Of a DNA stretch of 64,000 bases, positions 1,624-24,290 are shown in pieces. The notes under the pieces are model-generated. The model was not told where the DNA came from, ran no database searches, and was given only the letters and a program-made list of their open reading frames with translations. Numbering within the stretch: position 1 is the first letter of the stretch; every line of letters begins with the position of its first letter. Origin of the DNA: Flavobacteriales bacterium (lineage in GTDB: Bacteria; Bacteroidota; Bacteroidia; Flavobacteriales_C; GCA-002722245); assembly GCA_049430665.1 (NCBI GenBank), contig JBMTCG010000001.1, forward strand, positions 41,742 through 105,741, in the 5' to 3' direction. The position numbers were made by a program, and so were the translations under genes.

Positions 1624-2427
1624 TTGAAAAAACCGGTAACCGTTAAAAGTAAGAAAATACTGGGGATAATTAAGAAACAGCACGTTTTGCTGGTTCATGA
1701 AGAATCTCAAACGGGCACTGCTGTGCTCTTTTTTAAGTCGCGTTTGGTAAGTATTGTCTTGGTTTCTCTGGCTATTTTTCTAGTGATCTTTGCCTTGGCT
1801 TTTGTTATTTTGGCTTATACTCCTGTGCAGCAATATGTGCCCGGCTTTTTAAGCGATCACCAAAAAGAAATATTGCTAGATGATGCCCGTAAGACCGACG
1901 CTTTAGAAGAAGAGCTTAAGGGTAAGGAGGTGTATTATTCACATTTAGATTCGTTGATAGAAGAGTGGATTCCAAAGAACGATACTTTAAAAGGAGAGGT
2001 AAATGCGGCCAATATTTCGGTGCTGATGCCCGCCGAAGAGCAAATGAAAGCCATTAAAAACTTTTACTTCTATGCTCCGCTTCACGGCTTAATTTCTAAG
2101 CATTTCAATTATCAGGAAAAGCATTACGGAGTGGATATTGTATCGAAAAAAAACGAAGCGGTGAAAGCTACTTTAAATGGAAGAATAATATTGTCCACTT
2201 GGTCGGCAGAAACAGGAAATACTATTGTTTTACAACATTCAAACAATTTAATTTCGGTGTACAAACATTGCTCGGCCATGCTTAAAAAGGAAGGACAGTT
2301 TTGCAAGGCAGGCGAGGTAATCGCCATTATTGGTAATACGGGTGAAGATTCTTCGGGTCCGCATTTGCATTTTGAATTGTGGTTGAATGGAACGCCGTTG
2401 AATCCGGCGTCACATATGAGTTTTTAA
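1624..2427 (+). CDS. M23 family metallopeptidase (LytM/EnvC-like) with N-terminal TM anchor
   Basis: C-terminal motif GNTGEDSSGPHLHFELWLNG is the M23 zinc-site signature. A hydrophobic segment lies near the N-terminus. The exact start is uncertain. Confidence 0.7.
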   Translation: MKKPVTVKSKKILGIIKKQHVLLVHEESQTGTAVLFFKSRLVSIVLVSLAIFLVIFALAFVILAYTPVQQYVPGFLSDHQKEILLDDARKTDALEEELKGKEVYYSHLDSLIEEWIPKNDTLKGEVNAANISVLMPAEEQMKAIKNFYFYAPLHGLISKHFNYQEKHYGVDIVSKKNEAVKATLNGRIILSTWSAETGNTIVLQHSNNLISVYKHCSAMLKKEGQFCKAGEVIAIIGNTGEDSSGPHLHFELWLNGTPLNPASHMSF

Positions 2428-2636
2428 TGTTAAGCACGCAAATATTTTACTTGTTGTTTATTGCTGTTACGTGGTTTGGTAGCTATTCGTATGTGCAGAA
2501 GCAGATTATGCCGATACCTAAATTGCAAAGTATTTTTAAGGTGCAATGGCAAAAAACAGTAGCGACGTATTTGCTGTCATTAATTTTAGCACTGGCGATT
2601 ACTCAGTTGGCGATTTATAGCACGAAGTTTTTTTAA
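2379..2636 (+). CDS. small hydrophobic ORF, hypothetical
   Basis: 85-aa ORF with two hydrophobic segments that overlaps the M23 gene end. There is no homology I can name, so it may be spurious. Confidence 0.2.
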   Translation: MVEWNAVESGVTYEFLMLSTQIFYLLFIAVTWFGSYSYVQKQIMPIPKLQSIFKVQWQKTVATYLLSLILALAITQLAIYSTKFF

Positions 2637-2641
2637 GTAAA

Positions 2642-2741
2642 GGACAATAGTTCCTTCGGGGTACCTCAGGATGACAAACTGGGTAAGAGCTACCTTTAAG
2701 AGTGGTTGTCATCCTGAGGTACCCCGAAGGAACTATTGTCC
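2642..2741. repeat. perfect 36-bp inverted repeat (GGACAATAGTTCCTTCGGGGTACCTCAGGATGACAA / reverse complement) with 28-nt spacer; palindromic interspersed element, copy 1
   Basis: Arms at 2642-2677 and 2706-2741 are exact reverse complements. The element sits between convergent gene ends (2636 and 2753), so it likely also acts as a bidirectional terminator hairpin. A related copy is at 57207-57300. Confidence 0.8.
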
Positions 2742-2752
2742 TATACGTTAAT

Positions 2753-5071
2753 TTAAGGCGCTATTGTCTCAGGAATGGAATCTATTATAATATTCTCCGC
2801 TCCCACCGAATCAATTTCTACCACCACAGTATCCATTTTTGGAGCTTTCATTCTGCAGTTGTGTGGCACATCAATAGGGAAAGGCTCTTTAGGGAAAGGA
2901 GTAGGTTTTAGTTTGCTTTTCTTATCGGCAAATGCTTTTTGCATAAACAAACCAAAAATTGGCAAGGCGGTTTTCATACCTTCACCCGTTGCCGAGTTTT
3001 TAAAGTGTACACAACGGTCTTCCGCACCCACCCAAGTTCCACCAATCAATCCGGTGGTTACACCAACATACCAACCATCGGAATAGTTGTTTGAAGTCCC
3101 GGTTTTACCGCCCATTTGTGCGTTGTTGCCAAACAGAGCATATTGAAATAAAGCTTGCGATGTACCATTGTATTCTTCCACAGTTCCTCTTAGCATATAC
3201 GACATCAACCAAGCGGTTTCCTCTGTTAATGCTCTTTCTTGGGTAGAATTGAATCGTGCTATTTCTTCTCCTTTTTGATTCACGATGTGTGTAACCAAAA
3301 TAGGTTTAATTCTAAATCCGCCGTTGATGAAAGTCGCGTATGCAGTGGTTAATTCCAAGAGGTTAACATCATTGGTTCCTAAACCGATAGAAGGTACTGC
3401 CATTAACGGACTCTCAATTCCGCATTTTTTGGCGGTTTGGGCAACGTTATCCGGACCGCATTGTAGGGTTAATTGCACCGCTATGCTGTTAATAGAATTA
3501 GCCATGGCTCTGCGCAATGTAAGCGTATCGCCCGAGAAATGTCGGCTTGCATTTTTAGGTTCCCAAACGTGATGCACACCATCTTCATCGTATTCGTGAC
3601 GAACATAGCGGTCTATTCTTGTATCACATGGTCCGTTGCCTTGCTCGAAAGCTGTTGCATAAACAAAAGGCTTAAAGGTAGAACCCGGCTGACGTTTAGA
3701 TTGTGTGATATGGTCGAATTTCATGATTTTGTAGTTCCAGCCACCCACCCATGTTTTGATGTGTCCGTTTTTCGGGTCGAGAGTGAAGAAACCACAACGC
3801 AACATTTTTTTGTAATGCGCCAATGAATCGTAAGAACTCATCATCTTTTTGGTGAAGCCAGCATCGTGTGTAAATATTTCGCAAAGGTGAGGTTTGCGTA
3901 AGAAATATTGAATGGTATCTTCATTGTCTTCCCAGCGTTTTTTAAGTGCACGATACACATCTGTTTGTTTGATAGCATTTTCTAAATAGCCTGGTATCTC
4001 TTGTTTTTTGGCATCAACCCAAGGATTTTGACCAGCCCATTGCGCATCAAATTTACCTTGTAATGATTTCATGTGTTCTTGAACTGCTTCTTGCGCGTGC
4101 ATTTGCAAATTCAAATCAATGGTGGTGTAAATTTTTAATCCGTCGCTGTAAATATCATAACCGTTATCGCTACACCATTCTTCTAGTTCGCGCGCAACTG
4201 CGGCACGAACGTAGGGTACTTTGCAATCTTCTGGGTTTTCAACGTGATAATCTAGAGTAATAGGTTTGTCAATGGCTTTAGCGTATTCTTTATCGGTAAT
4301 TACGCCATGTTTTTTCATCAACGATAAAACAACATTTCTTCTTTCCAAAGATTTTTCGGGATGTAAAACCGGATTGTAAGTAGTGGTAGCTTTAAGCATA
4401 CCAATTAAAACAGCCGATTCATCGGCCGTTAAATCTTTTGGTTTTTTATTGAAATAGGTTTTAGCGGCAGTATTGATACCAAAGGCATTGCTGCCAAAAT
4501 CTACTGTGTTCATGTACAACAACAAGATTTCTTCTTTGCTGTAATTTTCTTCCAAACGTTTGGCCACCATCCATTCTTTAACCTTCACATTCACAGTGCT
4601 AATGCCTGGAATGTAGCTCAATAAACCTTTGTTTACTTTACGCATTTTAAAGATATTTTTGGCCAGCTGCATGGTAATGGTACTACTACCTCTTTTATCT
4701 CCTTTGATCATGTACCACAAAATGGCAATATTGGCTTTCCAGTCGATGCCGGTGTGCTCGTAAAAACGCACATCTTCGGTAGCTACCAAACCTTTGTGAA
4801 AAAGCGGATTGATGTCCTTATATCCTACAGAAGAGCGATTTTCACGAAAAAACTTGCCAATAACCTGACCGTCTTCAGCATAAATAACAGATGCAACAGG
4901 CAACTTAGGGTCTTTCAATTCTTTCACCGAAGGCATATTTCCCATTAACCATAGGAAATTGTGTTGAACAACTAAGTATAGAAATATGATGGTGAGAATA
5001 GGGTAGCGATAGCGTTTTTTCTTCCAAAGATAGATTCCGGCACTTTTAACTTTCTCCCAAATTTTCTTCAT
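2753..5071 (-). CDS. mrcA: penicillin-binding protein 1A (class A PBP: GT51 transglycosylase + transpeptidase)
   Basis: Transglycosylase motifs (ATEDVRFYEHTGID; GSSTITMQLAKN). Transpeptidase SxxK (QPGSTFKPFVYATA), plus SxN and KTG motifs (KTGTS). Confidence 0.85.
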   Translation of the reverse strand: MKKIWEKVKSAGIYLWKKKRYRYPILTIIFLYLVVQHNFLWLMGNMPSVKELKDPKLPVASVIYAEDGQVIGKFFRENRSSVGYKDINPLFHKGLVATEDVRFYEHTGIDWKANIAILWYMIKGDKRGSSTITMQLAKNIFKMRKVNKGLLSYIPGISTVNVKVKEWMVAKRLEENYSKEEILLLYMNTVDFGSNAFGINTAAKTYFNKKPKDLTADESAVLIGMLKATTTYNPVLHPEKSLERRNVVLSLMKKHGVITDKEYAKAIDKPITLDYHVENPEDCKVPYVRAAVARELEEWCSDNGYDIYSDGLKIYTTIDLNLQMHAQEAVQEHMKSLQGKFDAQWAGQNPWVDAKKQEIPGYLENAIKQTDVYRALKKRWEDNEDTIQYFLRKPHLCEIFTHDAGFTKKMMSSYDSLAHYKKMLRCGFFTLDPKNGHIKTWVGGWNYKIMKFDHITQSKRQPGSTFKPFVYATAFEQGNGPCDTRIDRYVRHEYDEDGVHHVWEPKNASRHFSGDTLTLRRAMANSINSIAVQLTLQCGPDNVAQTAKKCGIESPLMAVPSIGLGTNDVNLLELTTAYATFINGGFRIKPILVTHIVNQKGEEIARFNSTQERALTEETAWLMSYMLRGTVEEYNGTSQALFQYALFGNNAQMGGKTGTSNNYSDGWYVGVTTGLIGGTWVGAEDRCVHFKNSATGEGMKTALPIFGLFMQKAFADKKSKLKPTPFPKEPFPIDVPHNCRMKAPKMDTVVVEIDSVGAENIIIDSIPETIAP

Positions 5072-5076
5072 GATGA

Positions 5077-6267
5077 TTATTTAAGTAATCCAAGGGCAAT
5101 GTAAGCCATAAGTCCCATACCCGTTTCTAAAGCACTTTCGTCGATATCGAAAGTAGAAGTATGTATGCCCGAAGTAATTCCTTTGTTGGCATTTCTAACG
5201 CCTAAGCGGTAGAAACAAGAAGGCATTACTTGCGAGTAAAAGGCAAAATCTTCAGAGGTCATTCTTAGGTCTAATTCCTCCACGTTTTCTTTGCCCAAAT
5301 AGTCATCGGCCAAAGCCCATGATTTAACGGTAGTATTTTCTTCGTTTACCAAGAAAGGATATCCTTTTTGAATGTCGAAATCAACGCTGCCACCCATTCC
5401 TTCAGCCACGCTATTGGCCAATTTAAACATGATATCGTGCGCTTTCACCCTCCATTCTTCGTCCATTGTTCTGAATGTTCCTTCCATCTTTACAATATCG
5501 GGCACCACATTGGTAACGCCCAAACCTTCAATTCTTCCGAAAGAAAGAACAGATGGAATGATAGGAGAATTATGGCGACTCACTACTTGCTGCATGGCAA
5601 CAATCATGTGAGAAGCAATTAAAATAGGGTCGATATTGTTGTGAGGCATAGCGCCGTGTCCGCCTTTACCTTTAACAGTAACATAAATTTCATCGCAGCT
5701 TGCCATGTACATTCCTCGGCGAAAACCTACTTTTCCAGCATCCATAGAAGGGAAGACATGCTGCCCAATAATCAATTCTGCATCGGGATTTTTAAGTGCT
5801 CCTTCTTTAATCATTAAGGAAGCACCGCCCGGCAATACTTCTTCACCTGGCTGAAAAATCAACTTCACGGTACCTTCAAACTGATCTTTTAGCGCATTCA
5901 ATATTTTTGCTGTACCCAACAACGAAGAGGTGTGCACATCGTGTCCGCAAGCATGCATTACCCCAGGATTTGTTGAGCAATACGATACTTCATTCTCTTC
6001 TAAAATAGGAAGAGCGTCCATATCGGCGCGCAATGCAATTACTTTTTTACTCGGATTTTTACCTTCAATATGCGCCACAATTCCTGTTTCTACGTAACCT
6101 GCAGTAAAAGGAATGCCATTGTCTGTAAGGAATTGCTGAATGTATTTAGATGTTTTGTATTCTTTAAAAGACAACTCTGGATTGGCGTGCAAATACCTAC
6201 GCACCTGAATAATATCTTTCAGGTAATCTTTTGCTAAACCGTGTACTTTGTCTTTCATTAGGGGCAA
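5077..6267 (-). CDS. M20 family amidohydrolase (N-acyl-L-amino acid amidohydrolase-like)
   Basis: MHACGHDVHTS and DMDALPI motifs, typical of M20D metal-binding sites, in a roughly 396-aa protein. Confidence 0.75.
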   Translation of the reverse strand: MPLMKDKVHGLAKDYLKDIIQVRRYLHANPELSFKEYKTSKYIQQFLTDNGIPFTAGYVETGIVAHIEGKNPSKKVIALRADMDALPILEENEVSYCSTNPGVMHACGHDVHTSSLLGTAKILNALKDQFEGTVKLIFQPGEEVLPGGASLMIKEGALKNPDAELIIGQHVFPSMDAGKVGFRRGMYMASCDEIYVTVKGKGGHGAMPHNNIDPILIASHMIVAMQQVVSRHNSPIIPSVLSFGRIEGLGVTNVVPDIVKMEGTFRTMDEEWRVKAHDIMFKLANSVAEGMGGSVDFDIQKGYPFLVNEENTTVKSWALADDYLGKENVEELDLRMTSEDFAFYSQVMPSCFYRLGVRNANKGITSGIHTSTFDIDESALETGMGLMAYIALGLLK

Positions 6268-6537
6268 AGATATAAAAATTAGGTTAGGGCAGAAAGGGCT
6301 TTGTGAAATGTAAAAAGCACTAAAAAATGATTTTCAGTTTTTAGCGGTACTGATTAATATTACGTCGATTTACTTGACAAGGGGCTAAAAAAAAAAGTAA
6401 ATTCTACTACTTGCACTACTACTGCTATGGCGTCAACACATTTATTTGAATTAATTCACTCTCTTTCTCCTACTGAGAAAGGGTAAATTAAAAAAACCGC
6501 TTTTTCATCCTCAAACGGTGAAGAGAAATCGTACATA

Positions 6538-7368
6538 TTGTTGTTCGATGCTCTCGCCAATCAAGAGGTGTATGATGAAGACAAAATCATCAAGAAGTTT
6601 AAGGGCGCAGCATTCATCAAAAATTTATCGAAAAGCAAGAATCATCTGTACCATGTTATTTTAAAGCGATTAGCACAATACCACGAAGAAAATATCATTG
6701 AGATTAAAATTAAGGGTTTAGTGAATCAGGCTACCATTTTGTATAAGAAAGGATTGTACGAACATGCAGTGATTCACTACGAAAAGGCCTTGCGTTTAGC
6801 TTTAGACGCAGAAGAATTGGAAGTGGCCTTAGAAATTTATACCTGTCTTTTAGACATCTACTTTGTGGGAAGTATGGGCATAAAATTTCCTTATGAAGAG
6901 GAAATGAAAGTGCTTTCAAAAAAACTGAACAATGAACATTTGATAGCGCAACTGCACACCAAAATTGCAGAGAAAATGTTCTCCGACGATTTTAATTCTG
7001 AGCCAGAACAGGTGCAAAGTATTCACGATATTTTGAATGCGCCTTTGCTTCAAAAAATTAACGATAACGATAGTTTTTTTGCACAGTGGGGCAAGATGTG
7101 CATTCATACCCACAGCTACTATCTGCTAAGTCAGCATGAAGATGCCGATGCTATGAAAGCAAAGCAACTGGAGTTTTTGCGTACCCACCCAGCCATGACC
7201 AGTAAAACGCCCATGCGCTATGTAAAACATTTGGCCAACATGATCAATGGCAAATTAAATACTTGCCATTATGATGACATTCCTTCTCTTTTAGAAGAAT
7301 TGAAAAACTTTCAAAGCAACGAAAATTTGTTAGAGCATATTAAACCTTTACAGCTCTCGGTATATTAG
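6538..7368 (+). CDS. helical-repeat (TPR-like) hypothetical protein, N-terminal part; same frame as the next ORF, separated by one TAG
   Basis: ORF with a TTG start. The stop TAG at 7366-7368 lies in the same frame as the ORF starting at 7378. Confidence 0.45.
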   Translation: MLFDALANQEVYDEDKIIKKFKGAAFIKNLSKSKNHLYHVILKRLAQYHEENIIEIKIKGLVNQATILYKKGLYEHAVIHYEKALRLALDAEELEVALEIYTCLLDIYFVGSMGIKFPYEEEMKVLSKKLNNEHLIAQLHTKIAEKMFSDDFNSEPEQVQSIHDILNAPLLQKINDNDSFFAQWGKMCIHTHSYYLLSQHEDADAMKAKQLEFLRTHPAMTSKTPMRYVKHLANMINGKLNTCHYDDIPSLLEELKNFQSNENLLEHIKPLQLSVY

Positions 7369-7377
7369 ATTCAATCG

Positions 7378-7962
7378 TTGTCTTTATATACTCAAATTAA
7401 TCAACTCGACAAGGCTTATGCTCTCTTAGATGAAAGTATATTGTGGTTCGAAAAGAATGAACATTTGGTATCAGACTACTTTAAAATCATCTTTTACGAC
7501 TCAGTTTTCTTAGTGTATTTTATGAAAGGTGAGTTTAAAAAATGCATTCCTTGGATGAATAAAATAGCACATTCGAAAACGCCTTTCAGAAAAGAGTTGC
7601 GCTTGAGTTTAAAACTAAATTTATTGCTGTTACATTTTGAGCTTAAGAATTACGAATTGATTAGCTATCAAATCAAATCGTTGTACCGTGAAATACTAAA
7701 ACAAGAAAACAATCAAGAATCAACAAAATACATTCTACGCTGGTTTCAAGATTGTTTGAAAGACGCTAATAACGAAGCGTCACTTAAGAAATCAGCTGAG
7801 GAAATTAAATATCGTTTGCATAAAATGACTGAAAGTGGCGAGTGGAAACTGCTACTAGAAATGCGCTTATTTCACGCATGGTTGGAATCGAAAATCAATA
7901 AAAAGTCGGTTGCTGAAAACTACGCTAAAGAATATTTATTAGAATTAGCAGAACCAATCTAA
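7378..7962 (+). CDS. helical-repeat hypothetical protein, C-terminal part of a possibly interrupted gene
   Basis: Frame-1 ORF beginning 9 nt after the in-frame TAG of the previous ORF, with the same composition and repeat style. Confidence 0.4.
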   Translation: MSLYTQINQLDKAYALLDESILWFEKNEHLVSDYFKIIFYDSVFLVYFMKGEFKKCIPWMNKIAHSKTPFRKELRLSLKLNLLLLHFELKNYELISYQIKSLYREILKQENNQESTKYILRWFQDCLKDANNEASLKKSAEEIKYRLHKMTESGEWKLLLEMRLFHAWLESKINKKSVAENYAKEYLLELAEPI

Positions 7963-8010: not shown

Positions 8011-8032
8011 TGCTCTCCCTCTTGGACTTGAA
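8011..8032. repeat. att-site direct repeat (distal copy of the tRNA-Asn 3' end)
   Basis: Exact 22-nt match to 12726-12747. It lacks the upstream tRNA body, so it is a partial tRNA 3' end only. Confidence 0.7.
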
Positions 8033-8337
8033 GCCTAAGAGGAAATGCTGTAATATTAAGTCATTTAGAACTATCAACTTTTAGGGACACCTAATTTGTC
8101 ACCTAATTCTTAAAAAGAACCATATAGCAAATATACAGTTTTCAGTTTTTGAACACTAAAATTCCTCTACAAATTAAAGCCTGTATGGAGAAATATATTT
8201 GACTTCTCCTTACTAAAGTATTTTCATCGTTATCATCAATTGGATAAATTCCTGAATATATCCATTCATTGTATGAGTACCTGAACCATCTGCGCGTACA
8301 GATATTTTCACTCCGTTTTAAGGGATTATTCCGATTT

Positions 8338-9375
8338 TTATTGCAAAATAATCTTTTTTACTTCAACCAAATTACCTGAACCGTCTATAATATTAACAAA
8401 ATAAGTTCCAGTACTAAATGTATTAAGGTTAACTGAATATGACGGCTGACTGATTGTTTGTTGGTAAACCTCTTGATTCAATGTATTCAAAATTTTAATT
8501 TGGTAGCCATTGCTAGTTGAGTTGGCAATAGAAATATTTAACTGGTCATTAGTAGGGTTCGGGAAAATCTTAATGTTATTGGAATAACTAATAGGATTGA
8601 ATCCTGTTACATTCAGATTGATGACTAATGTATCCGTAACCGTCAAGTTTTGTAAGCATAGACTTTCATTGTACAATGCGGTTACTTCATTAGCGGTTAT
8701 TGCTCGGTCATAAATTCGATAATCATCAAGCGTTCCATCAAAATGCCCACCAGCTGGCCACACTTGGTGCGCACCAATAAATAAATCTGTACCATTGGTA
8801 ATTGGAGCCATTGCGCTACCTGATTGACTACCAGTTTGAGATACTAGTACATTGTCAATGTAAATTTTGAATTGTGAAGCCATTACAGAGCCAGCAGCCC
8901 CATCGTAAACGCCAACAACATGATGCCAGCTTCCATCGCGATATGTTCCATCTGTCATTTGGCCAATTGATTTTGCAGGACCATCATTGTTGAAAAGAAC
9001 TCTTCCATCATAAAACCCGCCTGTTATTGAGTGAAGATGTATTGTTAAACCATCTTGATTGTTTAACCCGCGTCCGCTAATTATTATACCGCCATAAGTG
9101 GTTTTAAACCAAGCAGAAATAGTATAAGAAGTCACATTGGTTTGTTGCAGACTTACTTGAATGGTGTCGTTGCCGTCAAACTGATAAGCATGATTGGGTC
9201 TTCCAAATCTGTCTGCTGTAAGTACTGCCCCTTTAACAGTTCCGTTGTGTCCGTTACCTGAGTTGTCACTAGCATTTCCCGTAAACGACCAATAAGCCAC
9301 CAATCCATTAGTTGGTATTTGAGCAATTGATGTCATTGCCAAAACCATTAGTAAAAAAGTAAACGTTTTTTTCAT
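8338..9375 (-). CDS. secreted LamG/concanavalin-like jelly-roll domain protein with T9SS C-terminal sorting domain
   Basis: N-terminal signal peptide. The central region is typical of the LamG-like (Laminin_G_3) fold. The C-terminal roughly 80 aa (KIFPNPTNDQLNI...GTYFVNIIDGSGN...KKIILQ) match the type A T9SS sorting domain pattern. Confidence 0.65.
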   Translation of the reverse strand: MKKTFTFLLMVLAMTSIAQIPTNGLVAYWSFTGNASDNSGNGHNGTVKGAVLTADRFGRPNHAYQFDGNDTIQVSLQQTNVTSYTISAWFKTTYGGIIISGRGLNNQDGLTIHLHSITGGFYDGRVLFNNDGPAKSIGQMTDGTYRDGSWHHVVGVYDGAAGSVMASQFKIYIDNVLVSQTGSQSGSAMAPITNGTDLFIGAHQVWPAGGHFDGTLDDYRIYDRAITANEVTALYNESLCLQNLTVTDTLVINLNVTGFNPISYSNNIKIFPNPTNDQLNISIANSTSNGYQIKILNTLNQEVYQQTISQPSYSVNLNTFSTGTYFVNIIDGSGNLVEVKKIILQ

Positions 9376-9412
9376 AACTGATTTTTAAAGTTTTGGGAAA
9401 TATAAGGAAAAA

Positions 9413-9461
9413 TCTCCATATATGGAGAAAACAATTCTTTTGCATCTCTCCATTTTAGGAG
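9413..9461. promoter_or_regulatory. two TCTCC-N6-GGAGA palindromic operator-like sites in the divergent promoter region (9413-9428 perfect palindrome TCTCCATATATGGAGA; 9446-9461 TCTCCATTTTAGGAGA)
   Basis: Seen directly. The second site ends 2 nt before the XRE gene ATG at 9463. A related GGAGA-N13-TCTCC arrangement with a TATGGAGAAA half-site is at 8188-8210. Confidence 0.5.
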
Positions 9462-9462
9462 A

Positions 9463-9753
9463 ATGAAAAAATCTCTAAAGACAAGTCAATCTAAGAAGCC
9501 ACGACGAATACTAAAGTCTGATGAGAGAAACGATTTCAACAAAAAAATAGGTGACTATATTCGTGAGAAGCGAGAAGAAGCGAAATTAACACAAACCCAA
9601 TTAGCGGATAAACTTTATGATGGTCAAATGGAACCCAAAGGAGTATGGAAAATAGAAAATGGCTTGTACACCCCTAATCTTTATGTTATTGCGGAAATAG
9701 CAAAGGTTTTTAATCTTTCGTTATCAGAATTCCTAAAAGATTTCAAGTATTAA
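9463..9753 (+). CDS. XRE-family helix-turn-helix transcriptional regulator
   Basis: The LTQTQLADKLYDGQ...VWKIENG segment is a classic Cro/C1-type HTH. It is a small, 96-aa protein. Confidence 0.65.
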   Translation: MKKSLKTSQSKKPRRILKSDERNDFNKKIGDYIREKREEAKLTQTQLADKLYDGQMEPKGVWKIENGLYTPNLYVIAEIAKVFNLSLSEFLKDFKY

Positions 9754-9857: not shown

Positions 9858-10718
9858 GTGCTACCATGCAGCACAATATTCAAAGGCATTTATGTCCGAA
9901 TCGCCAGCAATTTTTTCGGTTTTCAATTTCACTTGTGTCATTTGACACATATCATAAATAAAGAAATTTTACTCGGAGAAGTCCCATTTGACACACTTTC
10001 ACCTTTTGGTCAGTATTTATATTCAAATAACAACTTGTATTACCGAAGGTGCGTCCAGATGAAAGCATACATGACAACAAAAGAATTTCTTGCGAAAGCA
10101 AATACCAGCAGGTCATCATTAATCAGATTAACAAAAGATTTAATGAAGAAAAAAGCTGAATGGAAAATAACTTATATCAAAGAAACAGCTAAAGGAAACT
10201 TGTTTCACCACTCATTACTTTCTCAATTCATTCCCGAATGGTGTTTAAATAAGTTAGTCGAATACGAAGAACATTTTGATGACATGAGAAATTTAGTAGC
10301 TGTATTGGAAGACTCCAATTCATTGCCATATATATTATATAAGATGAAATGGGATAGTTTCATTACGGTTGCTTATGCCAAAACTTATAAGCCGGAAAGA
10401 TGCTTTATCATGATGTCAGAAGTCGCCAACATACTAGAAGAAAAATGCGGGAAGGGAATCGAATTCCGTATGTTTTTTACTACAGAATCATTTTCCCATC
10501 GGGAAGGACACCACAATCATTTTTTCCTTCGGGTAGGAAACCATGAAAGAAGAGAATACGCATTAGATTTTATCAAGGATTACTTTGCTGGTGACCGAGT
10601 AGATATTAAATCATACGACCAAGAAAAAGCTGGCCTATTTTATATTGCCAAAAGTGGTTTGCAGGGAACCGAATGGGACATAAGAGGGAATAACTTAGGT
10701 AATGCCCAAACCAAATGA
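9858..10718 (+). CDS. hypothetical element protein with HUH-like motif (HHNHFFL) followed by Y..K residues; probable true start at ATG 10059
   Basis: The ORF track start of 9858 is probably too early: MKAYMTTKEF at 10059 follows a promoter-like region with TTTGACACA repeats. The His cluster plus downstream Tyr resembles rolling-circle Rep/relaxase HUH motifs, but only weakly. Confidence 0.35.
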   Translation: MLPCSTIFKGIYVRIASNFFGFQFHLCHLTHIINKEILLGEVPFDTLSPFGQYLYSNNNLYYRRCVQMKAYMTTKEFLAKANTSRSSLIRLTKDLMKKKAEWKITYIKETAKGNLFHHSLLSQFIPEWCLNKLVEYEEHFDDMRNLVAVLEDSNSLPYILYKMKWDSFITVAYAKTYKPERCFIMMSEVANILEEKCGKGIEFRMFFTTESFSHREGHHNHFFLRVGNHERREYALDFIKDYFAGDRVDIKSYDQEKAGLFYIAKSGLQGTEWDIRGNNLGNAQTK

Positions 10719-10848
10719 AAAAGGTAATACTAACCAAAAAGCAAATCTTAATGGTAATTAATGCTATGAAATCCGGTGAAATCAAAGTCCCAATTTATAT
10801 GAGCGGAGCTACTTTTAATGCTGTTTTCAATACTAAAAGCAACAAAAT

Positions 10849-10876
10849 GTTGTGTCCGCCGCAGGCGGATCACAAC
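10849..10876. terminator. GC-rich hairpin between convergent element genes (bidirectional terminator candidate)
   Basis: GTTGTGTCCGCC-GCAG-GCGGATCACAAC forms an 11-bp stem with one bulge. It has T-rich flanks on both strands and lies between the gene ends at 10718 and 10905. Confidence 0.4.
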
Positions 10877-10904
10877 ACCGTTTATTGATTATATCTCTGC
10901 AAAA

Positions 10905-11177
10905 TCAAATAGCGTTAAAATAGTATTCAATTGATTTTCGAGAATAATACCAAGCACCATTTAGCTTCTTTGATTTAATTTTTTGATTAACTCTTAAAGA
11001 CTTTAGCGTGTTCGCGGAGCAACTTAAAATCTCACGAGCTTCACCACCTTTTACCCATTCCTTATTATTAGTTTGTGTTTTTTCGGACAACATTTGTCCG
11101 ATTTCGTGTAAGAGTTCTGTTTTTAAACTGCGGATGATTAATTGTAAATCGTCATGTGATACTAAATTTAGGTTCAT
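10905..11177 (-). CDS. excisionase-family (MerR-like HTH_17) DNA-binding protein
   Basis: The C-terminal segment EWVKGGEAREILSCSANTLKSLRVNQKIKSKKLNGAWYYSRKSIEYYF matches the excisionase/HTH_17 pattern. It lies immediately upstream of the integrase on the same strand. Confidence 0.55.
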   Translation of the reverse strand: MNLNLVSHDDLQLIIRSLKTELLHEIGQMLSEKTQTNNKEWVKGGEAREILSCSANTLKSLRVNQKIKSKKLNGAWYYSRKSIEYYFNAI

Positions 11178-11213: not shown

Positions 11214-12611
11214 CTATGAAGCCAGTTTTATGATTTTAATTTTTTTGGAGAGGGCTTTTCCTTTTTTCAATTTCTTTTCAAGTTGCGCCATATCATTTTG
11301 AATTTTGGCATTACCAATTTTGGCATATATTTTTGTTGTCTTTAAATCCCTATGTGACAAAATTTCGCTTACTGTTTCAATAGGGACGCCATTTGCTAAA
11401 GCAACAGTTGTCGCAAATTTGTGACGTGCTGCGTGGTAACTTATTTCTTTGTTGATACCACATAAAGCTGCGATTTTCTTTAAATAATCATTGGTGGTTT
11501 GGTGACTATAAATTGGAAATATTTTATTCTTTTCGATAGAAATAGGGTGATTTTTATACTTCTCTACAATTCGTTTTGCTTCAGGGAGTAATGGCAAATT
11601 AATCTTCTCGTCTGTTTTTTTTCGATTGGTTACAATCCAGTATTTACCATCAATTCCACGTATTATTTCACTACTTTGAAGTTTACTAACATCTGCGAAT
11701 GCTAATGCTGTATAGCACGAAAACACGAATACATCACGAACAAGCGAAAGGCTTGGATTACTCAAATTTTCTTGTTCTAATTTTAGTAACTCTTCAGAAT
11801 TTAAAAAAGGACGTTGGGTGTCTTTGAAAACACCATTCCAATGTTCTGACAAATTATTGTTGAGCCATTTATTTCTATACGCCATACTAAGTATTTTCTT
11901 TAAGGCTTTACAATACCCTATGGCAGTGTTAAACTGGTGTTTGTATTCTGTTCTTAAAAAGTATTCAAAATCGCCAATGATAGTTGTAGAAAGGTCATTT
12001 AAAGCAATATCCTTAGTAAGGAAACGAAAAGAAATAAAGGCTTTAAGCATACGCAAGGCTATTTCATGTTTTTCAAGTCGTGATTCGGAAACCTTGCCAA
12101 TGCTTACCTGTTCTTTGAAATCTTTATTATGTAATTCGTATGCTTCTATTAAGGTATATTGTTTTTCACCAATGCCTTTTAGCAGATTTACAATCATTTC
12201 GGGAGTAGCCGTTTTTCCAGCCAATTGTAAAGTATTATAATGCTTTCGCACCTCATTAGATTTACTAGACAAAAAGCAATTCAATATTTGAGCCTCTTCT
12301 TTATTGCCTTTAGCTTTTTGGGCTTTAGAATCCCACTGAGAAGGTAAAATCCATTGTTTAGTACTTAGGTCTGAACGATTGCCGTTAATTGTTATGCGCA
12401 AATAGATAGGCGTTGCGCCCGTTTGTCTGTTCTTCTTCGCACCGCGAAGGTAAAATAAGGTTGAAACCATTCTTTGAAACCATTTTTTTTCTTTGTTATT
12501 GTTTTTCATTAGTATAAACAATTTAAAATTAATAATCAAGTGCCTGTTGCAGATTTCTTGGAGAAATAGAAGAAAATAGGTGTCCCTGTTTTGCTGGGTT
12601 AATAAGGACAC
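11214..12611 (-). CDS. tyrosine-type site-specific integrase (probable true start ATG near 12509, MKNNNKEKKWF)
   Basis: The N-terminus is Bacteroidota integrase-like (ATPIYLRITINGNRSDLSTKQW). The C-terminal catalytic region HAARHKFATT...LSHRDLKTTKIYAKI carries the RHR-Y-type catalytic residues. It sits next to tRNA-Asn. Confidence 0.8.
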   Translation of the reverse strand: MSLLTQQNRDTYFLLFLQEICNRHLIINFKLFILMKNNNKEKKWFQRMVSTLFYLRGAKKNRQTGATPIYLRITINGNRSDLSTKQWILPSQWDSKAQKAKGNKEEAQILNCFLSSKSNEVRKHYNTLQLAGKTATPEMIVNLLKGIGEKQYTLIEAYELHNKDFKEQVSIGKVSESRLEKHEIALRMLKAFISFRFLTKDIALNDLSTTIIGDFEYFLRTEYKHQFNTAIGYCKALKKILSMAYRNKWLNNNLSEHWNGVFKDTQRPFLNSEELLKLEQENLSNPSLSLVRDVFVFSCYTALAFADVSKLQSSEIIRGIDGKYWIVTNRKKTDEKINLPLLPEAKRIVEKYKNHPISIEKNKIFPIYSHQTTNDYLKKIAALCGINKEISYHAARHKFATTVALANGVPIETVSEILSHRDLKTTKIYAKIGNAKIQNDMAQLEKKLKKGKALSKKIKIIKLAS

Positions 12612-12699: not shown

Positions 12700-12727
12700 C
12701 TTTGACCACATTTGCTCTCTGGTCTTG

Positions 12728-12801
12728 CTCTCCCTCTTGGACTTGAACCAAGGACCCTCTGATTAACAGTCAGATGCTCTAACCAGCTGAGCTAAGGAAG
12801 A
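12728..12801 (-). tRNA. tRNA-Asn (anticodon GTT)
   Basis: Manual fold of the minus strand gives acceptor TCTTCCT/AGGGAGA (one G-U pair), D-arm GCTC-AGCTGGTTA-GAGC, anticodon arm TCTGA-CTGTTAA-TCAGA (GTT), variable loop GGGTC, T-arm CTTGG-TTCAAGT-CCAAG and discriminator G. CCA is not encoded. A 5' UCC start occurs in E. coli tRNA-Asn too. Confidence 0.8.
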
Positions 12802-16818: not shown

Positions 16819-17540
16819 TGCAGGAGATTACTCCATATAATTTTGATGAATTTCTTTTCGAATATTTCGAGGGAACGCTTAATGAAGTTGACAAGAAAAA
16901 ATTCTTAGCCTTTATTGAACAAATTCCTTCATATAAAAAAGATATGGAACTGTGGGGGCAATCAATAGTAGCCAGTGACAATATAGATGTGCCAGAAGGA
17001 TTAGAGAACCTATTTACAAGAAAAGAAAGCTTTTGGAAAAGTAGCAAAGGCAAATGGACTATGGGTGTTGTTGCCGTTGGTATCATAGCGGGCAGTGTTG
17101 CATTATATAATCTAAAAGAGACCACATCCACTACTCCAACACTTCCAAAACCCGAGCAAACTGAAATGAAAGCGTTGCAAAAAAATGAGCAAAACAACAC
17201 TCAACAATACTTCAATAGTACTAACGACAAAATAGAAAAAACTGCTTCGGCTACTATTCGCTCGGCAAATGATAATAATAAAATTCCTACAACTTCATTT
17301 ATAGGAAAAGCTAACCAAGAGGAAATAAAAGATGTACCGCATCTCTCTATTGAAAAAGATACAACACAACAAAATTTCAGTAATACAGATGGAGTTATTG
17401 GTAATGCTGAAATAGTAACGCCCTCAGATGGACCAAAAAAGCCCGTTGATCAGCCAGAAATAGAAATCGAAAAAAAGAAAAAAAACCTAGGTAAACCAAA
17501 GAACATCATTGATATGCGAAATAATTTGGAAGAGAATTAG
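16815..17540 (+). CDS. putative anti-sigma factor (single-pass membrane protein)
   Basis: It overlaps the sigma gene by 4 nt. The N-terminal roughly 70 aa form a cytoplasmic domain, followed by one TM helix (VVAVGIIAGSVALY) and a low-complexity extracytoplasmic tail. Confidence 0.5.
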   Translation: MMQEITPYNFDEFLFEYFEGTLNEVDKKKFLAFIEQIPSYKKDMELWGQSIVASDNIDVPEGLENLFTRKESFWKSSKGKWTMGVVAVGIIAGSVALYNLKETTSTTPTLPKPEQTEMKALQKNEQNNTQQYFNSTNDKIEKTASATIRSANDNNKIPTTSFIGKANQEEIKDVPHLSIEKDTTQQNFSNTDGVIGNAEIVTPSDGPKKPVDQPEIEIEKKKKNLGKPKNIIDMRNNLEEN

Positions 17541-18477
17541 TCTTTTGCCTTTTTTTCTGTTCTTCTTTCAAACACTTTCTGCTCAAAATTATACTCCTTT
17601 TTTACAGGGTCAAGCTGCATTTTTATATTATAATCCCGCATTTGCGGGCTCAACAGGCTTTCATAGAGCGGCAATAGGAACAAGCTTTTCAGGTAGCAAA
17701 TTCAATCCCAATTTCCAAAGATATTACGGCTCATATGATCAATACATATCTAAAAGAAAACTTGGATTTGGGGCTATTTCAACCAATATCCCAAAATATC
17801 TAGGCGACGTTAAAAATAAAGTGAACTACAATTTTTTTGAGGTAATGCTCTCACCTAAAGTACGACTAAGCAAAAAGCTAATGCTTTCATTCGGCTTGTC
17901 GGGAAGCGTTGCAGGTCGATCATACAGAAAGAGTGCTATCGATCCCCTTGTGAACAATAGCATCTCAAAGCGACTAAATTTGAACTATTGCGGTGGCCTG
18001 GTATTGAATTCTAAAAGCTTCTATTTTGGCTACAGTTTAAGGCAATACACACCTATTATTGCTTCACAAGACACCTCCTTTAAGTGCGATATTCAAGAAA
18101 TTCCTGCTTTGGTTTCCACTTTTCAGGGAGGTATGATCTTCAAAAGCAATAAAGCTTTCAACTTTGCTCCTTCATTCATTTACCAGCGCTATCACCATGC
18201 AGCAATGCAAGGACAAAATGACCTAACATTAATTGCTAATTTTAAATATCGCACGTTCTTTTGGGCATTGGGATTTGGCAGCACTAACTTGCAACTAAGT
18301 GTAGGTTACTATGGTGAACGTTATCGATTTGGATATTCTAAAGGCCTTATGTACAACGTTAGCAATTCTTCTTACATTTTTGTTGGTCAAGAATTATTCT
18401 TCTCTTATACTTTTGAAGATTTCTCTTCAAAGCTTTTTGCACGTAAAAAAGACGACGCCATAAAAGAAGAAAAGTAA
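17509..18477 (+). CDS. PorP/SprF-family T9SS-associated outer membrane protein (candidate)
   Basis: Signal peptide, then QGQAAFLYYNPAFAGS, which resembles the conserved N-terminal motif of the PorP/SprF family (…NPAxAG). Size and beta-rich composition fit. Confidence 0.5.
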   Translation: MICEIIWKRISLLPFFLFFFQTLSAQNYTPFLQGQAAFLYYNPAFAGSTGFHRAAIGTSFSGSKFNPNFQRYYGSYDQYISKRKLGFGAISTNIPKYLGDVKNKVNYNFFEVMLSPKVRLSKKLMLSFGLSGSVAGRSYRKSAIDPLVNNSISKRLNLNYCGGLVLNSKSFYFGYSLRQYTPIIASQDTSFKCDIQEIPALVSTFQGGMIFKSNKAFNFAPSFIYQRYHHAAMQGQNDLTLIANFKYRTFFWALGFGSTNLQLSVGYYGERYRFGYSKGLMYNVSNSSYIFVGQELFFSYTFEDFSSKLFARKKDDAIKEEK

Positions 18478-22823: not shown

Positions 22824-24290
22824 CTACTCTACATACCACTTTACCACCCTATTCTCCCCTTCCTTGTTCAATTTCAAAAGATATAAGCCTGTTGGCAAAA
22901 ATTGTTTGCTTTCAGCTAATGTGCCGAAATATTCGTGTAGTTTTTTGCCTTGAATATCGTAAACTGAAATATTGTAATTCTGAGTTAAGGAAAACGCTGT
23001 GCTTTCTTCCTTCACCGTGGTAGTCCAATCGGCAAAACCACCAAATGTAACAAGTATCTTAGAAGGAGAAGAACGTTGCAGAGTCGACGATTGATCGAAC
23101 ACATCATCATAAGCAAAAGCATAAGTTTTGTTGTTGTAGCTGATGCCATTTTCATGAAAAAACTTAGCGTAATAATTACATGGCGCACTTAGATAATACT
23201 GCGATGGATCGGAAAAATTCTGAGTACCAACATTGGGCGTAGTAGTATTAATCACATGGCGCGAAATGGCCGCACATATTTGGGCTTGCATCATTAAATC
23301 GACAGGAGCATCGCCATTGATTTGATTCAACACTCCTTTCCCTTCAAATACTTCTTGCGTTGTTGGTCGGCGACTTATAATAGCCGTTCTTCCGTTAAAT
23401 CCGCCAGATTGGGCCACCATCACCAATTGTACATTTTGCACTCTTCCTTTCCAAACACCAGCATCACCTGCGGAAAAAATCAAATCTTCGTTGGCATACT
23501 TCGTCCAAACGGCGTCGATATAAGGTTTCATGTAATCTACATATGGCCCTATATTCGGCATAGTACCAATGGTTCCATCTGCAAAGGCTTCGGTTTTGGT
23601 TGGGAAAAGAATTACACCAATATTGGGATTATAACAGCCTTGAAATTCAATAGGTACAGAAGCCAGGAAGTCGGCACCAATATCGGTATGCACTTTCAAT
23701 TCTCCTGTTTTTTGATGCGAATTACCACCACCCCACAACTCTAATCCCATTGGATAATTGTATGAGTCAACACGTGTGGTATTTCCCCAGAAACCGTATT
23801 GATTATAAGTCATTTCAATAATTTCGTAAGCGATGCCTTTGTTAGGATCGGTGGGGTCGGTATGGTTGGGAGAAGCATAACCCGACGGCGCACCAGTAGC
23901 TCCAAAGAAATACATATACAAGGGACTTCCAATAGAAATGAACATTCTGCAACCTTGAATACCTGCTAAACTTACTGTTTTATTAGGGATATCGCTTAGT
24001 TTGGTGAAGCAGGCAGCGTACATTCCGTTGTTGCCCGGACCTTTATTACCGCCATACACCGGACCAGCAACAGTGTTGTAGCTTGGACTCATGGGCATTT
24101 GTTGGCCATTGGTCATATCTACCCATACGTGTGCACCCGGCGGACCAGTTAAATCTTCACCCACAATGGCCACATACAATTGGTTATCGGCATAAGGTGA
24201 ATTGTTCTTAATTTCAAAAGGAATAGTTTGGGCAAACAAGGCGTTCGCCCAAACTATAGGGAGGAGAAAAGTAGCTCTTAAAAAATTCAT
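22824..24290 (-). CDS. secreted protein with T9SS C-terminal sorting domain (enzyme-like N-terminal domain of unknown family; possibly glycoside-hydrolase-like)
   Basis: Signal peptide. The C-terminal roughly 90 aa (…ISVYDIQGKKLHEY…GLYLLKLNKEGENRVVKWYVE) fit the type A T9SS sorting domain. I cannot assign the catalytic domain. Confidence 0.55.
   Translation of the reverse strand: MNFLRATFLLPIVWANALFAQTIPFEIKNNSPYADNQLYVAIVGEDLTGPPGAHVWVDMTNGQQMPMSPSYNTVAGPVYGGNKGPGNNGMYAACFTKLSDIPNKTVSLAGIQGCRMFISIGSPLYMYFFGATGAPSGYASPNHTDPTDPNKGIAYEIIEMTYNQYGFWGNTTRVDSYNYPMGLELWGGGNSHQKTGELKVHTDIGADFLASVPIEFQGCYNPNIGVILFPTKTEAFADGTIGTMPNIGPYVDYMKPYIDAVWTKYANEDLIFSAGDAGVWKGRVQNVQLVMVAQSGGFNGRTAIISRRPTTQEVFEGKGVLNQINGDAPVDLMMQAQICAAISRHVINTTTPNVGTQNFSDPSQYYLSAPCNYYAKFFHENGISYNNKTYAFAYDDVFDQSSTLQRSSPSKILVTFGGFADWTTTVKEESTAFSLTQNYNISVYDIQGKKLHEYFGTLAESKQFLPTGLYLLKLNKEGENRVVKWYVE

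Follow-up and report, generated by a model that had tools for sequence, protein, structure and literature searches.

The substrates of Bacteroidota's type IX secretion system (T9SS), which serve gliding, polymer degradation and virulence, are usually viewed as chromosomal traits. Surface factors known from lysogenic conversion and superinfection exclusion include receptor-masking lipoproteins and O-antigen modification. In 2020 Bellas et al. described 'Cryophage', which encodes hypervariable genes whose products bear a T9SS C-terminal sorting domain (CTD), and a function in competition or superinfection exclusion was suggested for them (PMC7468147). Here we present an open reading frame (ORF) at positions 8338-9375, minus strand, of a 64,000-nucleotide stretch from a Flavobacteriales bacterium (assembly GCA_049430665.1, contig JBMTCG010000001.1); the whole of this stretch is called the window below. 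The ORF encodes a protein of 345 residues, LamG-CTD, in which a signal peptide, a LamG/ConA-like domain and a linker precede a T9SS sorting domain of type A. We propose that it is the payload of a two-gene cassette, consisting of an XRE regulator, an operator and the LamG-CTD gene, which is carried on an element integrated at tRNA-Asn and works by the mechanism set out below, and we give this proposal a probability of roughly 0.45. The window comes from a metagenome-assembled genome (MAG), the sequences compared with it come from MAGs and metagenomes, and the sample of genomic contexts is small.

A preliminary description of the locus had claimed a LamG fold and a canonical T9SS sorting domain for this protein, and a hidden Markov model (HMM) check with Laminin_G_3 and TIGR04183 found both above cut-off. 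In Pfam, Laminin_G_3 (PF13385) matched residues 67-231 (E 1e-21, 78.1 bits, cut-off 27.6) and Por_Secre_tail (PF18962) matched residues 270-343 (E 4.1e-12, 46.7 bits, cut-off 27). The NCBIfam model TIGR04183 matched residues 270-345 of 345, that is, the extreme C-terminus (E 3.5e-10, 39.7 bits, cut-off 23); this type A sorting domain, recognized by both PF18962 and TIGR04183, is encoded at 8341-8568 on the minus strand. At the other end of the protein, MKKTFTFLLMVLAMTSIAQ followed by IPTNG was read by inspection as a putative Sec signal peptide (residues 1-19; 9319-9375, minus strand), with MKK, a hydrophobic stretch and cleavage after IAQ, and the junction of AQ with (I/V)PTNGL is kept across the 28 homologues of our alignment A1. 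A linker of about 30 residues joins the LamG domain to the CTD. Neither a catalytic nor a toxin domain was found in LamG-CTD by the Pfam and NCBIfam searches.

With the 28-sequence alignment as input, AlphaFold2 produced a confident beta-sandwich for residues 20-235 (predicted local distance difference test, pLDDT, about 90) and a linker predicted to be disordered. The closest compact structure found by Foldseek was carbohydrate-binding domain 4 of the arabinanase AbnA (5hon_A; template modeling score 0.74, 22% identity). Foldseek E values against solved LamG/ConA-like structures ranged from 2.5e-10 to 4.5e-9 at overall identities of 12-22%, with further fold matches to the Hc N-subdomain of clostridial neurotoxin (1af9), sialidase CBM40, pentraxins and the LG domain of pappalysin. 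Matches of the family profile to solved LamG/ConA-like domains lay between 1e-5 and 1e-10, and its C-terminal part matched 8glj_D and 8glk_D, two Por sorting domains of known structure. By its architecture and fold, LamG-CTD may function as a lectin or adhesin. A scan of genome contigs with LamG-CTD gave a best full-length match of at most 41% identity, so that no close relatives were among these contigs. With respect to the linker (8569-8667, residues 237-269), its consensus CYQxITVTDTLIINxxxTGFNP is strongly conserved family-wide, yet AlphaFold assigned it a pLDDT below 50; it may represent a candidate segment for T9SS recognition or processing, or an extra strand of the CTD.

The core of LamG-CTD is variable. 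A sister element was found at the same tRNA-Asn/PfkB site (L088, also L089 and L090), where the PfkB proteins are 97% identical in amino acids. Between the window and L088 the integrase (Int) is 86% identical, the excisionase-like protein (Xis) 81%, the rolling-circle replication initiator-like protein (Rep) 79% and the XRE 77%. The LamG proteins of the two elements share 50% identity overall, distributed as 78% in the signal peptide, 86% in the CTD and 16-19% in the core (approximately residues 67-205). A third sister element, L209, is 79% identical in Rep, 95% at the att end, 74% in the CTD and 30% in the core. When nucleotide and amino acid sequences of the sister elements were compared, the swapped, hypervariable segment could be placed at 8731-9202 on the minus strand (about residues 59-215). 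Over these positions no nucleotide similarity to L088 or L209 was detectable, and the 5' and 3' parts of the gene were 71-77% identical.

A similar disagreement between core and CTD was observed within the wider family. The core closest to that of the window (P0003, 59%) is paired with a CTD of only 47% identity. P0002, in turn, shares 94-96% of its CTD residues with P0029, P0082 and P0105, whereas their cores are 15-32% identical to that of P0002. Across all pairs of the 28-member alignment, core and CTD identity showed no positive correlation (Spearman rho -0.18, p 5e-4). Because core and CTD are phylogenetically incongruent, the data point beyond relaxed constraint and indicate that cores have probably been exchanged between a constant signal peptide and a constant CTD, which would act as export 'handles'.

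The LamG gene was repeatedly found in the company of a divergent XRE gene, located 73-125 bp upstream, in 10 distinct loci. These are the window, L088, L209, L002, L003, L005, L007, L014, L015 and L017; a further locus, L004, has the same sequence as L003. The LamG proteins of L002, L003/L004, L005 and L007 are the closest homologues (48-54% identity), and those of L014, L015 and L017, which come from reference genomes, are 34-39% identical. Sister elements aside, the closest cassette is that of L002. The homologue loci L001-L087 and the window stretch add up to 897 kb and contain only 18 helix-turn-helix (HTH)-like ORFs, 8 of which, counting L004, lie exactly at the divergent position. None of the approximately 70 remoter LamG loci has a divergent HTH gene. 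A literature search found no published XRE-LamG-T9SS cassette.

The DNA that carries the pair differs considerably from locus to locus. A tyrosine integrase and Rep backbone is present in the window and in L088, and L209 has the same Rep backbone on a contig that ends before any integrase. Large serine recombinases accompanied by DUF2130, DUF2779 and HsdR are found in L003, L005 and L007, and a serine recombinase together with Rep in L014. The contig of L002 is phage-like and bears five tRNAs, an RNA ligase, a NUDIX gene and an IS1595 transposase. In L015 (beside MutS, tRNA-Gly and tRNA-Leu) and in L017 the cassette stands alone between housekeeping genes, and no recombinase lies nearby. Overall, a recombinase or transposase was present within the fetched flank of 7 of the 10 XRE-linked loci, versus 1 of about 13 full-length loci that lack the XRE. 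Since the pair recurs both on unrelated backbones and in recombinase-free loci, the XRE is probably the controller of the cargo rather than a master repressor of the element. Further support comes from L091, an element with LamG-CTD and no detectable XRE, and from L209, whose XRE is unrelated to that of the window (24% identity) despite the Rep identity of 79%. The term 'element's XRE repressor', used in the preliminary description, should therefore probably be given up.

Two of these loci deserve separate mention for their neighboring genes. The five tRNA genes of L002 lie together with ART-PolyVal, R2K, AAA_33, NUDIX and T4-type RNA ligase genes at 155-1837 and 2375-7535, and the contig looks like a phage or an RNA-repair/counter-defense island. 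In L091, a 145-residue protein with an Lcl_C domain is encoded beyond the LamG gene (5910-6347, minus strand).

In the window, the LamG and XRE genes diverge across an 87-bp spacer (9376-9462). As had been anticipated from the sequence, this shared promoter region is operator-bearing in appearance, with two TCTCC-N6-GGAGA palindromes that are unique within the 64-kb window (0 expected by chance). The putative operator O1, TCTCCATATATGGAGA, is a perfect 16-bp palindrome at 9413-9428, located 8 bp upstream of the -7 box of the LamG gene, and the putative operator O2, TCTCCATTTTAGGAGA, at 9447-9462, abuts the XRE start codon. The putative Bacteroidota -7 box itself, TATATTTC at 9397-9404 on the minus strand, was located by eye; it is one mismatch from the consensus TAnnTTTG and lies 22 nt before the LamG ATG. 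O1 is identical in the sister element L088, and O2 has one mismatch there.

Comparable features were present in the other cassettes. Perfect palindromes of 16-20 bp (arms of at least 8) were found in 7 of 9 cassette spacers (p 0.013-0.036 each, by shuffling), positioned 36-72 bp before the LamG ATG. A TAnnTTTG-like box follows the palindrome in 6 of these 7 spacers, including L088, L002, L003, L014 and L015 and excluding L007. The palindrome sequence varies by locus, being TCGGCATATATGCCGA in L014 and L015 versus TCTCCATATATGGAGA in the window. A sigma-70 promoter scan returned 23 sites against 19 expected, with a model that is uninformative for Bacteroidota promoters. The arrangement of O1 and O2 in the window suggests that the XRE may repress both the LamG gene and itself.

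The mechanism that we propose runs as follows. LamG-CTD would cross the inner membrane via Sec by means of its signal peptide, after which the T9SS of the host would recognize the type A CTD and move the protein over the outer membrane. The CTD would be cleaved off and the LamG/ConA-like beta-sandwich either released or attached to the surface, where the exposed LamG domain would serve as a lectin-like binding module and not as an enzyme. The XRE would set transcription by binding O1, which lies between the -33 and -7 elements of the LamG promoter, and O2, which lies over the leader of the XRE gene itself. The design would be constant-variable-constant, with the promoter, signal peptide and first strands kept on one side, the last strands, linker and CTD kept on the other, and the core between them exchanged. 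Because the part exchanged by recombination is the ligand-binding core, sister elements would display different specificities. There is good support for reading LamG-CTD as a binding protein that is predicted to leave the cell through the T9SS and whose specificity can be swapped. As to what such a protein would be for, our lead, the likeliest of the roles considered yet short of even odds, is a conflict role at the cell surface, for example by masking or occupying a variable receptor or glycan there, so as to exclude phages or superinfection, or by strain-specific recognition, and we consider a role of this kind more likely than nutrient acquisition.

With respect to the export machinery, the host probably has a T9SS. 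The window holds a PorP/SprF-family gene (17509-18477, plus strand), the Pfam assignment of which was shown via a further contig, L208, and a second type A cargo protein is encoded in the chromosomal flank (22824-24290, minus strand; 488 residues, TIGR04183 27 bits). The T9SS core genes gldKLMN, sprA, porU and porV are absent within the 64-kb window. Gene conversion with the host cargo was considered as a source of the element-borne CTD and rejected, as the latter has no similarity to the CTD of the 22824-24290 protein. A 14-nt repeat (8278-8291 and 8373-8386) together with a small ORF (8213-8311) had prompted the idea of a displaced sorting-domain relic at 8033-8337; this too was discarded, as the family CTD HMM found nothing there in six frames.

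The element that carries the cassette in the window is 4,715 bp long and contains five genes, the ORFs of which are all intact, flanked by a perfect 22-bp direct repeat, TGCTCTCCCTCTTGGACTTGAA (0 expected by chance). The left copy, attL, lies at 8011-8032 and the right copy, attR, at 12726-12747, where it forms the 3' end of the integration target, a tRNA-Asn(GTT) gene (12727-12801, minus strand; ARAGORN, Rfam tRNA 67.5 bits). This tRNA was the sole match in the Rfam scan. A site-specific recombinase, direct repeats of a tRNA 3' end and a candidate directionality factor (HTH_17) are all present, as in other tRNA-integrated elements. The predicted empty attB junction reads ...GGACTTC-TGCTCTCCCTCTTGGACTTGAA-CCAAGGACCC..., and the att region with the adjoining element end is 92-95% identical in L088 and L209. 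Placed symmetrically just within both element ends are the 15-nt arms of a sub-terminal inverted repeat, AGGGACACCTAATTT on the left (8083-8097) and AAAATAGGTGTCCCT on the right (12573-12587), which are 93% complementary and constitute a possible arm-type site of the integrase.

Alongside LamG-CTD, the element encodes an XRE/HTH_3 regulator of 96 residues (9463-9753, plus strand; PF01381 7e-10, 39.2 bits, cut-off 23; PHROG repressor families) and a HUH rolling-circle Rep-like protein of 219 residues (10059-10718, plus strand). On the minus strand follow an Xis-like HTH_17 protein of 90 residues (10905-11177; PF12728 28.5 bits, cut-off 27; 81% identical in L088) and a tyrosine integrase of 431 residues, counted from an MKNNNK start (11214-12509; Arm-DNA-bind_5, Phage_int_SAM_5 and Phage_integrase; PHROG 1 2e-29). 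As these four are a regulator, a Rep-like protein, an Xis-like protein and an integrase, LamG is the sole non-backbone gene, which agrees with the earlier claim that it is the only accessory gene of a mobile element. A prophage or satellite was considered and rejected, as PHROGs show only the integrase, repressor, HTH and a LamG virion-protein segment, and no virion genes.

The Rep-like protein, which combines an N-terminal HTH with a nuclease domain and belongs to the element backbone, had no direct matches in Pfam, NCBIfam or PHROG. Its motifs FITVAY, GxHNHF and AGLFYIxK are all invariant, and PF23343 (REP_ORF2-G2P) was matched by 13 of 30 remote homologues; on the strength of these three invariant HUH motifs and the PF23343 matches we read the protein as a HUH rolling-circle Rep. 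The family is rare: a word-indexed search gave 22 homologues, 198 cluster representatives among 1.84 billion belong to it, and relatives are absent from IMG/VR. It resembles known HUH Reps (PF23343, SIRV1 ORF119, and the parvovirus and CRESS Rep proteins) in the three HUH motifs and the nuclease fold. Unlike them, it carries an HTH as an N-terminal fusion and resides inside chromosomal elements with an integrase or serine recombinase.

Several observations were made at the borders of the element. Directly left of attL lies a BT2802-family (TPR-like) frame of 511 codons (6427-7962, plus strand) with two in-frame stops, TAA as codon 20 (6484-6486) and TAG as codon 314 (7366-7368). The frame is probably that of a pseudogene, the alternative being assembly errors in the MAG. 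An identical PfkB protein was found in just one further contig, L208, which starts 122 bp upstream of it and breaks at the element edge. In L088 the att core occurs three times, a degenerate tRNA-like remnant comes after the element, and a 96-residue GIY-YIG gene has a second copy next to the left end as well (5590-5880, 10600-10679, 10688-10978 and 11022-11096). The pattern points to insertions at tRNA-Asn that are in tandem or nested.

The cargo of related elements was also surveyed. LamG-CTD is carried by the closer members of the Rep family, L088, L209 and L091 (Rep 56-79%), and by L014 (Rep E 1e-34). The distant Rep members (33-39%) often have a small resolvase beside Rep in addition to a tyrosine or large serine recombinase. 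Their cargo comprised, in L092 and L207, a type I restriction-modification (RM) system with AAA_13 behind an HTH_3 gene; in L206, DarT and Macro; in L108 and L109, an RM enzyme of type ISP; in L099, an HSDR_N_2/N6_Mtase protein accompanied by an S subunit; and in L102, a 1,609-residue PDC-S37/Hhe-like helicase-nuclease. By guilt by association, over about 10 loci, this cargo points consistently to conflict functions. In L005, a SoFic-like gene directly follows the cassette and an HsdR gene lies nearby. One could go further and see in XRE-LamG-CTD an unrecognized extracellular exclusion or defense module, in which a lectin akin to phage receptor-binding domains, displayed or released by the T9SS, would mask or occupy a variable surface receptor, and its core, swapped between constant export handles, would track an arms race, on a new family of integrative HUH-Rep mini-islands that otherwise carry RM, DarTG or Hhe; this extension is speculative, and we think it rather unlikely.

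LamG_3 also occurs in phage virion proteins (PHROG 8510, 2.5e-14), with 100 ORFs across 80 viral loci. These relatives on viral contigs are at most 37% identical to LamG-CTD, and the CTD was present in 1 of the 100, which has no XRE nearby. Two distant Rep homologues have other large genes as neighbors. Next to one is a gene for a 1,720-residue SBBP/Ig_7 protein that bears a T9SS signal of type B (CHU_C) (L101, 386-5548, minus strand), and next to the other a DUF5977 and DUF6443/RHS pair (L112, 383-6939). Both may be further secreted or competition cargo, being known as neighbors and not as genes internal to an element. As a side observation, two penicillin-binding proteins of the PBP1A family are encoded in the 64-kb window (2753-5071, minus strand; 30794-33430, plus strand).

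Other explanations of these data were weighed against the proposed cassette. Somewhat unlikely in our judgment is that LamG-CTD is ordinary fitness or 'moron' cargo, namely a secreted or surface protein resembling a carbohydrate-binding module (CBM), or an adhesin, whose variable core would reflect different substrates. AbnA domain 4 (5hon_A) as best compact match, the profile matches to CBM40 and pentraxin lectins, the lack of any catalytic or toxin domain and the many XRE-less homologues in ordinary chromosomal settings would all suit such cargo, and the T9SS cargo of Cryophage includes glycoside hydrolases (PMC7468147). However, no glycoside hydrolase, SusC/D or polysaccharide-utilization genes were found beside the cassette in the loci examined, and the related elements carry mostly defense systems. 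A dedicated repressor-type regulator and the exchange of cores between near-identical elements would, moreover, be unusual for a substrate-binding helper. That the XRE is a CI-like immunity repressor of Rep and excision, with LamG a lysogenic-conversion gene that merely shares the divergent promoter, strikes us as quite improbable. The XRE does lie upstream of Rep on the same strand, does match PHROG repressor families and has two putative operators, one of them over the XRE leader as in autoregulated immunity regions. The different XRE and operator region of L209 within a conserved backbone also resembles the heteroimmune module swaps of temperate phages. Such a repressor would nevertheless not be expected where the pair sits on backbones that have no homologue of this Rep, that have other recombinases or that are free of mobile genes (L002, L003, L005, L007, L015 and L017), nor does it fit L091, which combines Rep, Int and LamG without a detectable XRE, or the distant Rep elements, which place HTH_3 before the RM cargo and not before Rep.

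Two further explanations concern the element rather than the regulator. T9SS cargo is typically surface-attached and present on outer-membrane vesicles, and LamG-CTD might aid the spread of the element as a surface or vesicle lectin that promotes cell-cell or vesicle-cell contact. Such a role would go with an element that encodes a HUH Rep/relaxase-like protein and no conjugation or virion genes, and with the presence of LamG cargo in four Rep-family members (the window, L088/L209, L091 and L014). We regard it as very improbable, as most Rep-family elements lack LamG and carry defense genes, and the cassette also occurs without Rep. It would be equally surprising if the LamG gene had no function at present and were decaying, or lying idle, on the domesticated remains of an element. 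That a related genome (L088) has the element at this very site, with flank-like divergence, and that a probable pseudogene with two in-frame stops adjoins attL, could be taken in that sense. Against this, the five ORFs are intact and the att repeats perfect, the signal peptide, framework strands, CTD and operators are kept in the sister elements, and the intact but distinct core of each sister argues for selection.

The proposal of a regulated, T9SS-exported payload with an exchangeable core has itself to be set against a number of less favorable observations. L091 has Rep, Int and LamG-CTD, and no XRE was detectable in its 370-bp LamG-Rep spacer. Most of the remoter homologue loci have neither XRE nor recombinase and non-mobile homologues are abundant; with more than 1,000 LamG_3 plus CTD homologues, in single-LamG (about 350 residues) and double-LamG (about 575 residues) forms, the LamG fold itself must therefore be considered generic. 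The low identity of the cores would partly result from weaker structural constraint on loops, and the XRE could be an activator or dual regulator and not a repressor. The link to defense cargo, as stated, is one of guilt by association over about 10 loci. A known defense system was considered and rejected: the LamG protein matched 0 families of PADLOC-DB 2.0 and the XRE gave generic HTH matches only, and in the absence of a LamG match the cassette is kept apart from known defense systems. Finally, the L088 element has a nucleotide identity of 75-84% to that of the window and the flank 83%, a like divergence at the same site, so that long residence or vertical inheritance of the window copy is possible; this copy may be a long-standing resident. 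The preliminary description had called the gene horizontally transferred, which is plausible for the element family, with this reservation for the window copy.

In terms of significance, a T9SS substrate comes here in a portable package together with a probable regulator of its own, with conserved export signals and an interchangeable core, on small elements that have relatives with anti-phage systems as cargo. Should the conflict role prove true, an extracellular, secretion-dependent layer would be added to the defense-island repertoire of Bacteroidota, and part of the large unannotated LamG_3-CTD family would be explained. Even if the protein served plain adhesion or substrate binding, the constant-variable-constant design would offer T9SS display a natural scaffold of the 'plug-in' type. 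The HUH-Rep family, which is rare and unannotated and is associated with either tyrosine or serine recombinases, should provide a useful marker for cargo genes in environmental Bacteroidota.

When the locus is compared with known systems, Cryophage is likewise a mobile element of Bacteroidota that encodes type A T9SS proteins, presumably for export by the machinery of the host, and their genes are hypervariable against a conserved remainder (PMC7468147). A mobile element that supplies a T9SS substrate had been called uncommon in the preliminary description, and uncommon it is; it is not, however, unprecedented, given the phage-encoded hypervariable T9SS cargo reported in 2020 (PMC7468147). Cryophage differs in being a large phage whose cargo consists of an endoglucanase, a GH39 and a PA14 protein (PMC7468147), whereas the present element is a 4.7-kb integrase/HUH-Rep element without virion genes and with a single LamG domain. 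It further has a dedicated XRE and operator, and its variation is confined to a core between constant ends. The chromosomal LamG-jellyroll T9SS proteins of Bacteroidota (PF13385 and PF18962) have the same architecture and clear homology. The loci of remoter homologues mostly lack both a divergent XRE and a nearby recombinase, whereas the present clade is XRE-linked and mostly found on mobile elements.

The cassette resembles RM systems controlled by C proteins in that mobile DNA carries a small HTH_3 regulator and palindromic operators along with the gene that the regulator would control. C genes are, however, usually co-directional with their target, whereas here the genes are divergent, the product is a predicted secreted binding protein and the regulation is deduced from the arrangement. 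Surface-exclusion factors serve as a working analogy, as in both cases an accessory gene on an integrated element has its product at the cell envelope; they are unrelated in sequence and differ in export route, which here is predicted to be the T9SS. The solved LamG/ConA domains (5hon, 1af9, CBM40, pentraxins and pappalysin) have the same fold, the comparison being one of fold and not of ligand-binding residues, and because the LamG core is variable the ligand cannot be transferred by homology. Relative to all of these systems, what appears to be new is the unit of regulator, operator and cargo, its constant-variable-constant design, and its carriage on a rare HUH-Rep family with mostly defense cargo among the other members examined.

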